DNA of 11,285 bases from IMG/VR virus record IMGVR_UViG_2690316156_000014; one strand, written 5' to 3'. Source of the stretch: a virus. Its lineage: Duplodnaviria > Heunggongvirae > Uroviricota > Caudoviricetes. Shown piece by piece: positions 3,001 to 6,000 of this stretch. A program made the position numbers. Each line of letters begins with the position of its first letter. The first letter of the stretch is position 1.

Positions 3001-6000
3001 TTGATCTCCACGAACATGGCTAAAGAACTGGCGATGGTCGAACGCACTGAACAGGGCCGCGCAATTCGCCAGTACTTCATCAAATGTGAAGAAGAGCTAC
3101 ACAAGGCAGCGCCGGAACGTGCCGCAGCTTTGCGCCGTGAACTGAAAGCGCGTGTCACCGTTGCCAGTTTTTTTAAGCCTATGTGCGCTGCGCTGGAGTT
3201 GTACCGCGCAGAGCTGGGAAAAGAGACTCATCAACACCACTACACCACAGAATCAAATATGCTGGCGCGTATCGTGCTGGGCGGCATGACGGCGAAACAA
3301 TGGGCGCAGGAGAACGGCATCAAAGGAAAACCGCGTGACAGCATGAGCGTTATGCAGCTTGAACACCTTTCCTACCTTGAGCAGAGCAATATCACGCTGA
3401 TTGAGTTGGGTATGACTTACCAGCAGCGAAAAGCCGAATTAATCCGCCTTTCACAGCGCTGGCTGGCCCGTCGCATGGGAGAGCATGAACATGCCTGACA
3501 TCCTCAAACCTGCTGTCCGGTACATCGACACGGCGGATAAGTTCGCACTACTGAACATCAACCATGCTGATTACATGCGCCATATCGTGAGCCATTTCGC
3601 CGCTGAGCGCATGAAACACGTTAAGCAATACTTGGAGGAGGTTTTATCAAATTATCGCGCTGGCGGCCCTGTACGGCGCGAATATCCGCATGATGCAGGA
3701 ATGACAGGCAAAACAAAGGCGACCACGGAAGGGTCGCCAGTGGAGATAAAGGAAATCAAGCGCATCACCAACTATGCCATGAGTGTAGCTGGTGGACAAG
3801 GCTATCAGCCTGGCGGGCGATTTTTGGTTGCTTTTAGCCGCCGTGGGTATTTGTCCAGAAATGCCTCAAGCGCAAGTCGTTTTGGTCTGGTGAGAGGAGA
3901 GGGATTAAGCAAAGACTCTCGCTTCTGGCGTGCTTTTTCACGCTGGCGCTCAATTATGGATAATGCGATTGCCTGTAATTCTTCGTTGGTCATTGTCTGT
4001 ACCCGTAAAGCGGTGCGCTGTAGTACCTCATATCACAGCGCAGGTATTTTTTATGGTTGTAATTTGCGTGATGATTCAGGTCGCTTTGCGACATACTGCA
4101 TAAACATAAATAACGTGATGTTATTATGTGCTTTCAAAGAAAACGCAGGTATTTTTCGCACAAACTTCTCTCGCAACACATCCGACCACTTAAGCAAAAA
4201 AGCGGCATATACTGAGGCTATCCCTTATAAAACGGGGATCGGGCGTAGGAACCCGTTTAATCAGTACAAGGCGACACAGGCGCGCCCAGCGTCTTTTTTT
4301 GTGTCATTCCATCGCGCAACCATACCCAGCGGCAAGGCCCGTACTGTATCTATGGTGGCGCTGGTGGGGCAGCCGAAAGGCTGGCCGGTTTCCTTGTACG
4401 CCGGTATTCCTACCCCCGCCAGCGTCACCGCCCTTTATGAGCGTAGGAACTCCAGCGGTGACTCCTTAAAACAGTACAAGGAGGCCTTTCACATGGCTGT
4501 ATCCGCACGCCCTTACTTTGTCTGGCGCTTTATGCAGTGCCTGACAGACAGCATTGCAATATTCACCGTTACCGCTGCCACTGAGCACGAAGCACGCGCC
4601 CAGCTGCCGCACGCACATCTTGTTTTTGTCGCCCGTATCCGTCAGGAGGTGACTCATGCTTAAAACCTTCCGCGTCTTTTCCCGTGCTGTTAATAATCGC
4701 GGCTATACCGTTGGCATCACGCAGAACGTGAAGGCCGAAAACGTCCAGGCTGCAATCAGCACAGTAATTAACAAATCAGCTAAAGCCGGTTTATCCGGCG
4801 TAATTATCCACGCCGTTCATGAAATAAATGGGGTGCAGTAATGCAGGAAATAACACTGGCAGAAGCATCACTGAAAGCGCAGCAGGTCGAAGTAATCAGC
4901 CGCATGATTGAGCGCATGATAGAACGTAACCACGAAGAAATTGACGACCATGACCTTTCTGTTATTGCGGGACTGATTAAACAACTTTCCGCAAATGTGG
5001 CGGTATGGTTAATGACGGAGGAAGAAAAACGCGCTGAACAATAACGGAGAAAAATAAACAGGAAATAAAGATTAAGACGACGCCTTCAGGAGATTAATTA
5101 AATGAAATCAAAAAATACTGGCTTAACTGCCAGTGGCAAAACTCAACCCGAATTTATGCGCGGGGATATTTACCGCGATAAGTACGGCGGCATCGTGATG
5201 ATTATCAGCATGAGGGAACGGCGCATCACCTACCGCCGTGAAGGGTATGACTATGACTGCGTGATGCCTGTTTGTCAGTTCCGGCGTGATTTTTCCCTGG
5301 TGCAGGCCGTACCACGTCGTAGCCCAACCAGCAACAACAAAGCAAAGGCGCATGTTAAGGCCATGAAGAAGACGATCAGCAGAGGTAAGAAATGAAAAGC
5401 GCACCGAACTTAAAAAAACAGCCGCGAGGGAAAAAACACGCCGATACGGAAGTGATTATTTTCGCTGGCAGTGATGCGTGGGCGCACGCGAAACAGTGGC
5501 AGGAGCAGGAGGGACGACTTGCAGGTGATGATGTTCCGCCAGTCGTGCTTTCTGATGAACAACTTAAGGATATTGGCAATCTGAAAATTGTGCCCGACGG
5601 GCGCAAATCAGCGCGTATATACAAGGCCGGACACCTCGATCAGATGATGGTCAAAGGCATCGGTCAGAAGCTGGCAGCCGCAGGTATACAGGATGCTGAT
5701 TACTACCCTGAAGGAATGCACCACAACGAGCGGCAGAACTGGCGTAACTATCTGGATATTGAACGCAAAAACATTTCTGACGGGCTGGTTATTGAGCTGC
5801 CTGTAAAGAAAAAAGCGCGGGGACAGGGTGATGATTCGTCACTGGCACTTAACCAGATGGGGGCCAGCCAGCGTGGCAGGGTTCTTCTTGCTCATTACGG
5901 AGGGGAACTGGCAATAAACCCTGACTCTGACACAGTTCACTATTACAACGGGGTTATATGGTCCCCCGTGCAGGACAAAGAGCTACAGCGCACAATGGCG

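Follow-up and report, generated by a model that had tools for sequence, protein, structure and literature searches.

The window analysed here is the whole 11,285 nt stretch of the IMG/VR virus record IMGVR_UViG_2690316156_000014, which, judged from its gene content, is a phage satellite of Escherichia coli of the phage-inducible chromosomal island (PICI)/P4-like type. A 62-codon frame on its reverse strand (3993..3805) is very probably a genuine gene for a small protein of this satellite. We further consider it likely that the gene represents the single cassette of a leftward unit, which lies antisense within a long open reading frame (ORF) resembling eta of satellite P4. The two overlapping frames appear to be under two kinds of selection, since the minus frame is conserved as a protein and the plus frame only as an open frame. 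The features of this region are:

3805..3993, minus strand: 62-aa small-protein gene, 'MTN family' (MTNEELQAIALS..ERQREK...LALEAFLDKYPRRLKATKNRPPG), from the ORF listing and comparative evidence
4014..4042, minus strand: 5' leader stem-loop of the small gene, from fold, covariation and covariance model
3708..3738, minus strand: intrinsic terminator of the leftward unit, from a terminator scan; GGCGACC-CTTCCGT-GGTCGCC, then TTTGTTTTGC
4109..4137, minus strand: weak, speculative candidate promoter TTGAAA-17-GTTATT, found by eye from alignment A4
3485..4663, plus strand: eta-like read-through ORF of 392 codons within the stop-free stretch 3443-4663

Coding strand over positions 3805-3993

The minus-strand ORF, with ATG as start and TGA as stop, was found with exactly the coordinates and the translation given in the original prediction. 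Its location wholly inside the plus-strand ORF 3485..4663 (392 aa) and the weakness of its ribosome-binding site (ACGGGTACAGACA-ATG) had also been described correctly. The length of the ORF carries no weight, because 22 minus-strand ORFs in the window are equally long or longer (63 ORFs have at least 50 aa). Position 3 of the minus-strand codons coincides with position 3 of the plus-strand codons, and open antisense shadow frames are therefore common. For the same reason the two frames were compared directly by Nei-Gojobori counts, in addition to the distribution of substitutions over codon positions.

For the substitution counts we used homologous segments from up to nine loci (8-24% divergent) and assigned the variable columns to plus-strand codon positions 1/2/3:

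antA (own frame, control): 22/15/45, periodic
icd (control): 16/23/32, periodic
3805-3993: 20/20/39, periodic
3545-3804: 29/24/19, not periodic
4061-4207: 11/12/13, not periodic
4152-4306 (isrK): 15/18/15, not periodic
4340-4465 (C4): 10/11/12, not periodic

Beside the antA control, periodicity was seen only within the bounds of the minus-strand ORF and in icd, and coding-type selection is thus confined to these two among the segments compared.

Over 3805-3993 the ratio of nonsynonymous to synonymous substitution rates (dN/dS, omega) was 0.06-0.40 for the minus frame and 0.13-0.94 for the plus frame. In every distinct pair the value for the minus frame was below that for the plus frame, at about half of it. 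The control genes showed values of 0.20 (antA) and 0.18-0.51 (icd). In 3545-3802 omega of the plus frame scattered around 1 (0.3-2.6), and no other frame was consistently low. Between the loci L003 and L017 there are 23 nt differences; 18.5 of them are synonymous when read in the minus frame, and only 4 aa changes result. Amino acid differences were fewer in the minus frame (e.g., 13 versus 21 in the plus frame) and the replacements were milder, with a mean BLOSUM62 score of about -0.1 compared to about -0.8 in the plus frame. Among eight divergent paralogues the translated similarity had a mean z of 4.4 for the minus frame and of 1.45 for the plus frame, and the minus frame was ahead in 26 of 28 pairs. 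Start, stop and protein motif were kept across paralogues whose DNA no longer aligns.

We also considered islands of the EDL933 type, which are decayed and share positions 3801-4201 of the window at about 80%. There the plus frame is broken, including once inside a paralogue, and the minus-strand ORFs are intact. The comparison of both frames in relatives showed that the minus frame is under purifying selection at the protein level. This agrees with the earlier statement, made from composition, that the minus frame is more protein-like than the plus frame: its omega is lower, its replacements are milder, substitutions are codon-periodic, and paralogues are similar in the minus frame and not in the plus frame.

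The annotation of this locus is in conflict. PGAP calls the minus-strand ORF in some genomes, where the orthologue is listed as a hypothetical protein (WP_071827874.1), a plus-strand 'ash family' pseudogene in others, and a plus-strand shadow ORF in EDL933. In the closest relative (L018) the 62-aa ORF and a gene for a ribbon-helix-helix (RHH) protein, which the window lacks, are the only minus-strand genes inside the element that the gene callers report. Our comparison would settle the coding strand at a locus where annotation pipelines disagree. Another minus-strand ORF of the window, with 68 aa, lies at 10229-10435 and has no Pfam match.

The proposed leftward unit and its protein family

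The leftward unit would comprise the weak candidate promoter, the stem-loop 4042..4014, the 62-aa ORF and the terminator 3738..3708. As minus-strand RNA the leader folds with -16.9 kcal/mol (z -2.1), compared to a z of -0.8 for the plus-strand RNA. In 14 distinct copies it forms an 11-bp helix with 85.7% of cells paired and four pairs changed on both sides. The covariation score was reached by none of 500 shuffles, and slid controls collapsed. Two positions are mostly G·U, where the plus strand would have A·C mismatches, and these pairs therefore fit a minus-strand RNA only. The loop, UGAGG or UAAGG, resembles a Shine-Dalgarno sequence and is located about 29 nt upstream of the ATG; its core is kept as GAGG, AAGG or GGGG. 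The covariance model R1 matched the window once (3985-4055, minus strand, 83.7 bits). Its 26 hits in 15 loci correspond to one per family ORF, with none in front of RHH genes and none in P4, and the stem-loop keeps a constant distance to the ATG.

The terminator follows the stop codon of the small gene at a distance of 67 nt. In eight further loci the stem GGCGACC-loop-GGTCGCC and TTTG(T)4 close the leftward array behind its final gene, regardless of whether one, two, three or four genes are present, and the loops vary between loci. Both hexamers of the candidate promoter are kept in EDL933-type copies.

Other functions considered for the hairpin were rejected. As a plus-strand terminator it would have the weaker fold (z -0.8) and C·A mismatches. 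An action of the C4 RNA on the leader would involve a complementarity of only 5 nt that lacks conservation. For a mini-ORF in the leader with coupling to the ATG, the TTG start is not kept in the window, and an integron-like attC cassette site does not fit in size and architecture. In L012 an intercistronic hairpin at 3038-3064 (minus strand), followed by AUUGCUUUAC, is called terminator-like by the scan and might attenuate, in a leaky manner, transcription that passes from the RHH gene to the small ORF. The window has a poorer T-tract after the hairpin than L012.

In relatives the usual layout is int, sometimes a hypothetical gene, and AlpA, all rightward; then the family ORF, a 57-nt spacer and the RHH gene, leftward; then (isrK/C4) Icd, DUF4222 and primase, again rightward. 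The RHH gene (YlcI/YnfO, DUF3950 or Arc-like) thus precedes the family member, and both are divergent from the Icd/C4 region. The 57-nt spacer corresponds to the leader 4042..4014 of the window. L018 is the same as the window from 2906 (or earlier) to 4018 and has an identical 62-aa ORF preceded by an RHH gene; neither the window nor L003 has this gene. Window and L018 diverge inside the leader hairpin (about 5950-5980 of L018, original coordinates), with the RHH gene in L018 and isrK/C4 in the window. Since the divergence starts in the hairpin, the leader looks like a recombination junction between cassette types.

The leftward arrays consist of one to four paralogous small ORFs (L017, 1905-2879 in original coordinates; L015, 3001-3804; L001, 3406-3960). 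In L017 the start-to-start distances are 243, 270 and 213 nt, which are multiples of three, so that the ORFs of the array share one phase.

A search with the single sequence yielded 13 clusters, all from E. coli. We then used a family profile built from the small minus-strand ORFs of relatives that share the C-terminal motif. It recovered 102 clusters at E<=0.01, all of them 'hypothetical', without a Pfam domain and from Escherichia or Shigella. A HMMER scan of 1.84 billion representatives gave only 26 hits, and a scan of GTDB species found the family in E. coli and Shigella only. The proteins have 55-82 aa, are helical and carry an N-terminal helix MT[ND]EELQ.[IL]ALS..E.QREK and/or a C-terminal [KR]FALExF[LV]xKY. 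The window protein (P0001) aligns over its full length with alleles of 71-84% identity and has the motif in common with distant members. Subfamily b is characterized by an arginine-rich KRRRRKK and ERFAPCAFALEKFLKEY, and P0050 is a mosaic of both subfamilies. At least 1000 contigs carry P0007 and 352 carry P0004, in all cases intact. About 790 of 5426 complete E. coli genomes, including enterohaemorrhagic E. coli (EHEC), harbor the family. A search of IMG/VR found one contig, tblastn against 50,697 phage records left the small protein unmatched, and the sole match in the plasmid search was the EDL933-type copy on large E. coli replicons. An unannotated family of satellite small proteins is hereby defined, in which each copy has its own RNA leader element.

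AlphaFold2 (AF2) with the family alignment predicted two helices, at 3-29 (pLDDT above 90) and at 41-48, where the FALExF motif is located, and a basic tail that is disordered; the mean pLDDT was 78.5 and the pTM 0.38. The product would hence have a long N-terminal helix, which varies between members, a conserved short helix and a basic tail. No match of the 62-aa protein was obtained in Pfam, PHROGs, NCBIfam or PADLOC, in the PDB profile search, or with Foldseek on the AF2 model. Since the members have no globular fold according to the prediction, they presumably act through binding of a partner. The window protein carries ERQREKARQKRE, which was set beside KRRRRKK of subfamily b in a comparison with lambda N, an antiterminator in which an N-terminal arginine-rich motif is paired with a boxB-type (nut-site) hairpin upstream of its own gene. 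We take this as a lead and not as a membership. A conserved hairpin precedes every copy, and its UGAGG/UAAGG loop is the same despite differing N-termini and is not a GNRA-like pentaloop; the library searches gave no sequence match of the small protein to N proteins.

The long plus-strand frame and the satellite switch

The surrounding satellite genes, in the order of the element, are:

1-1323: integrase, at the start of the gene order
between integrase and AlpA/HTH: hypothetical gene
2307..2582, plus strand: AlpA/HTH_17 (helix-turn-helix) regulator, head of the rightward operon (Pfam)
2650..3498, plus strand: AntA/AntB antirepressor gene, antA (Pfam AntA, 9.9e-24); overlapped over its last 14 nt by the beginning of the eta-like ORF
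4207-4259: a1/b1 C4-target match (RF03163, 24.6 bits, below the gathering score), overlapping the isrK-like RNA
4208..4213, plus strand: putative -10 TATACT of an internal PLE-like immunity promoter (presumed function), 7 nt before the isrK-like RNA
4220..4299, plus strand: isrK-like RNA, counterpart of P4 seqA (Rfam RF01394, 51.8 bits), with a terminator at 4278-4299
4348..4435, plus strand: C4/CI-type antisense immunity RNA (Rfam RF01695, 81.3 bits, E 3.8e-15)
4493..4663, plus strand: Icd/Kil-like gene, forming the in-frame C-terminal part of the eta-like ORF (NCBIfam NF033153, 8.9e-15)
between Icd and primase-helicase: small ORFs and DUF4222
5392-7212: D5-type primase-helicase
after the primase-helicase: single-stranded DNA-binding protein (SSB)
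8170-8616, plus strand: ProQ/FinO-family RNA chaperone
8600-8905 and 8909-9172, plus strand: two PerC-family activators
10472-10864, plus strand: phage Q antiterminator

The long plus-strand ORF of the original prediction is indeed an open frame. It is not an ordinary gene and rather resembles the read-through frame of P4 eta, and it ends in Icd. Its candidate starts, ATG 3485 and ATG 3491, lie behind GGGAGAG and overlap the stop of antA (3496-3498), and Icd is in frame with it (4493-3485 = 1008). The plus frame has no stop in 406 codons, while the remaining five frames have 14-23 stops each. All intact elements have a plus strand without stops over 245-674 codons between the alpA/Bro-zone gene and Icd. 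With about 5% stops in the other five frames, the nominal probability of such an open frame is 1e-7 to 1e-15 per locus.

The small minus-strand genes are all in one phase relative to the plus frame (position 3 on position 3), and cassette starts are multiples of three apart. We tested the avoidance of plus-strand stops in 24 distinct minus-strand genes with 1584 codons. None of the 114 Gln/His codons follows a T-ending codon (22.9 expected), and none of the 37 TA-initial codons follows a T- or C-ending codon (14.6 expected); for both counts the P values are inflated by the relatedness of the sequences. The avoided junctions are those that would make TGA, TAA or TAG on the plus strand. A 3-nt indel that preserves the frame separates divergent relatives from the window in the isrK segment, and L003 and L010 have an extra base in the alignment there. 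In L003 the long frame stops early at 4117, coinciding with the extra base, and a second, overlapping ORF (3928..4236) runs into Icd. These data showed that the plus frame outside of Icd has no amino acid constraint and is nevertheless held stop-free, and that the choice of synonymous codons on the antisense strand respects this. The locus would be an unusually clean natural case of an ORF selected just for openness that overlaps genes selected for protein sequence. That the ORF and 37 nt form a discrete mobile module was considered and dropped, as a sensitive alignment showed that EDL933-type islands share 3801-4201.

The Pfam Phage_ASH (PF10554) match of the plus-strand ORF (aa 242-341, nt 4208-4507) sits on the isrK-like and C4 RNA genes, and several PHROG 'transcriptional repressor' matches of the ORF coincide with the same genes. 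Since these segments are not periodic, the families seem to capture RNA genes in an open frame. This suggests that Phage_ASH and the related PHROG 'repressor' families are largely conserved RNA genes read in an open frame.

The C4 loop CCTTGTAC (4392-4399) is complementary to GTACAAGG at 4264-4271 and at 4474-4481, and the latter site is the ribosome-binding site of Icd. None of 200 shuffles reached three matches. The TATACT is kept in EDL933-type copies; a good -35 was not seen, and the promoter scan did not report the site.

In the immunity region of the P4 left operon (vis, eta, kil, seqA, CI) eta has an internal constitutive promoter, the transcript is terminated through CI/seqA interactions, and Kil is a truncated form, according to the summary of Forti et al. 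1999 in PMC10111431. In the P4 sequence the ORF 8812..8168 overlaps the end of vis and holds isrK-like (8692-8615) and C4/CI (8507-8420) matches, and its last 65 codons are Kil, in frame. The window likewise has a long ORF that overlaps an upstream alpA-type/Bro-zone gene, isrK/seqA-like and C4/CI RNAs inside it, and an Icd/Kil-like peptide in frame at its end. In contrast to the ORF of P4, which has about 200-214 codons, that of the window has 392 and is about 190 codons longer at the N-terminus. This extension accommodates an entire transcription unit on the opposite strand, protein-coding gene included, while P4 has neither the leader element (R1) nor the small protein. With our analysis the eta/kil/CI paradigm also covers satellites of the PICI-like type, whose switch gains a convergent leftward unit.

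By analogy to P4 (PMC10111431), ribosomes that enter from the induced alpA-antA operon would translate right through to Icd and thereby override the C4-mediated translational block and the ensuing Rho-dependent termination. If ribosomes have to reach Icd, insertions into the zone from antA to the immunity RNAs, the leftward cassettes included, must leave the plus frame open. With low confidence we propose that the small protein, by binding a partner, has a regulatory role in maintenance within the satellite switch, and that the convergent leftward transcript, which is fully complementary, may also dampen leaky alpA-antA-eta read-through as an antisense RNA. A more comprehensive model, which we regard as a serious possibility without favoring it outright, assumes that both strands are translated. 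The plus frame would be a conduit, required just to stay open, in which ribosomes from the induced alpA-antA operon take RNA polymerase past the C4/Rho block. Amino-acid-constrained antisense genes would have accumulated inside it as cassettes of hairpin and ORF. The cassettes (one to four per element) would then be confined to the one phase and to synonymous codons that make no plus-strand stop. If this model is true, the leftward unit, by its protein and/or its RNA, represents a second lock, not described so far, that keeps the satellite from being induced. The element's ProQ/FinO protein could have a bearing on its antisense RNA circuitry.

The eta/kil/CI logic is known from P4, and the ORF itself is already present in RefSeq as a 'hypothetical protein' in some genomes. 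For the family and its leader element we found no description, nor for a leftward unit nested antisense within an eta-like frame that has been lengthened, nor for codon constraints that the two strands impose on each other.

Other explanations for the conserved minus frame were weighed. A mere shadow ORF, open through the permissive antisense phase and neither translated nor selected, would be in line with the coincidence of third positions, the 22 other minus-strand ORFs of at least 62 aa, which are evidently spurious, the weak Shine-Dalgarno sequence and the consensus scan without a promoter. It is nevertheless highly improbable, given that the plus frame is non-coding on both flanks while periodicity is found exactly within the ORF, that omega and the type of replacements favor the minus frame, and that start, stop and motif persist in paralogues beyond DNA alignment. 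The dedicated covarying leader hairpin and the terminator, and the intact minus ORFs in decayed islands with a broken plus frame, also argue against it. True dual coding, in which the plus-strand ORF over 3805-3993 would also be a functional protein segment (Bro-network/Ash-family), is very unlikely: outside of Icd there is no codon periodicity and omega is around 1, and the plus-frame translations of paralogous cassettes are essentially unrelated. Gene callers and PGAP do name the long ORF 'ash family protein', and Phage_ASH and PHROG 'repressor' families match its C-terminal half, but the Pfam match coincides with the isrK and C4 RNA genes.

The leftward transcript could also function as an antisense RNA on the alpA-antA-eta read-through mRNA, with translation only stabilizing it or shielding it from Rho. 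The unit runs convergently to the eta-like mRNA, about 330 nt of which are fully complementary to it, the unit has a conserved structured 5' end and a terminator, and the element encodes an RNA chaperone of the ProQ/FinO type. If mere translation mattered, however, purifying selection at the amino acid level and a protein motif over about 100 clusters would be unexpected; the plus frame exemplifies selection for translation only, and the minus frame differs from it. We consider this explanation unlikely. A toxin-antitoxin pair, with the upstream RHH protein (YlcI/YnfO) as antitoxin, the small helical protein as toxin and the window copy as an orphan toxin, is hardly to be credited. Relatives do have the RHH gene followed by the small gene, and one JGI record labels a family member 'RelE'. 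Against such a pair, or against RHH as an obligate partner, stand the members without RHH (window, L003), the tandem arrays of two to four copies (L017, L001, L007) and the free combination of RHH types with family subtypes. Searches in PADLOC, Pfam and PDB gave no toxin match, and the helix-linker-helix predicted by AF2 is not a toxin fold.

Several points weigh against a genuine small-protein gene with its own leftward unit. As the third positions coincide, periodicity alone cannot tell the two frames apart, and their separation rests on omega, replacement type and the paralogue comparison. The compared sequences share kinship, which inflates the P values. The Shine-Dalgarno sequence of the window copy is weak, and the consensus scan gave no convincing minus-strand sigma-70 promoter near the ORF in the window. 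Since the RHH gene of L018 is missing here, the window copy could be a poorly expressed leftover. C-termini are frameshifted in P0008-10, P0012 and P0013, of which P0010 is found on 54 contigs, and the L001-type copies have 59 aa with the stop three codons early. The family has a narrow distribution, and the libraries searched gave neither a known domain nor a structural neighbor for it. Neither the peptide nor the names of neighboring genes appeared in the searched portion of the Sakai Ribo-seq small-gene supplements. Finally, a role of the plus frame in anti-termination is proposed by analogy to P4.

Comparable loci and further observations

Besides P4, other immunity regions resemble the locus in part. 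The immI region of P1/P7 (c4, icd, ant) and the isrK-orf45-anrP locus of Salmonella Gifsy-1 share with the window a C4-type antisense RNA that can pair with the icd ribosome-binding site and with sites upstream, an isrK-like RNA followed by its terminator, and an antirepressor gene in the zone. They differ in gene order, with antA located upstream of the RNAs in the window. To our knowledge no antisense small-protein gene has been described in P1/P7 immI or in the isrK locus of Gifsy-1. In immI of P22 (mnt and arc as RHH repressor genes, ant, sar antisense RNA) a small RHH gene is divergent from an antirepressor/immunity operon controlled by antisense RNA, as in the relatives of the window. 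In contrast, the window has no RHH gene, the 62-aa protein is not RHH-like, and no homology was detected. The antisense overlapping genes of EHEC (laoB, ano, asa, pop) are likewise short ORFs embedded antisense in a longer annotated E. coli ORF. They are experimentally supported, whereas the support in the window is evolutionary, and conservation as a protein concerns the embedded ORF here, with the 'mother' ORF kept only as an open frame.

Some relatives vary at the position of antA. In L020 a GIY-YIG nuclease gene (1769-2545, plus strand) takes its place, and the long frame overlaps the 3' end of this gene by about 50 nt. A GIY-YIG gene in the antA position was also seen in further relatives (hits H2 and H6-H15). 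L010 and L011 harbor two tandem C4 RNA genes each (3948-4035 and 4410-4498; 3610-3697 and 4088-4175), with an Icd-like gene after each, and the immunity module is therefore duplicated in these loci. In the iha island of E. coli O157:H7 EDL933 (L007) the sRNA Esr41 was found at 2009-2082 on the plus strand (RF02676, 108.6 bits), about 2 kb from three remnant cassettes of the small-protein family on the minus strand (4202..4005, 3908..3729 and 3677..3483).

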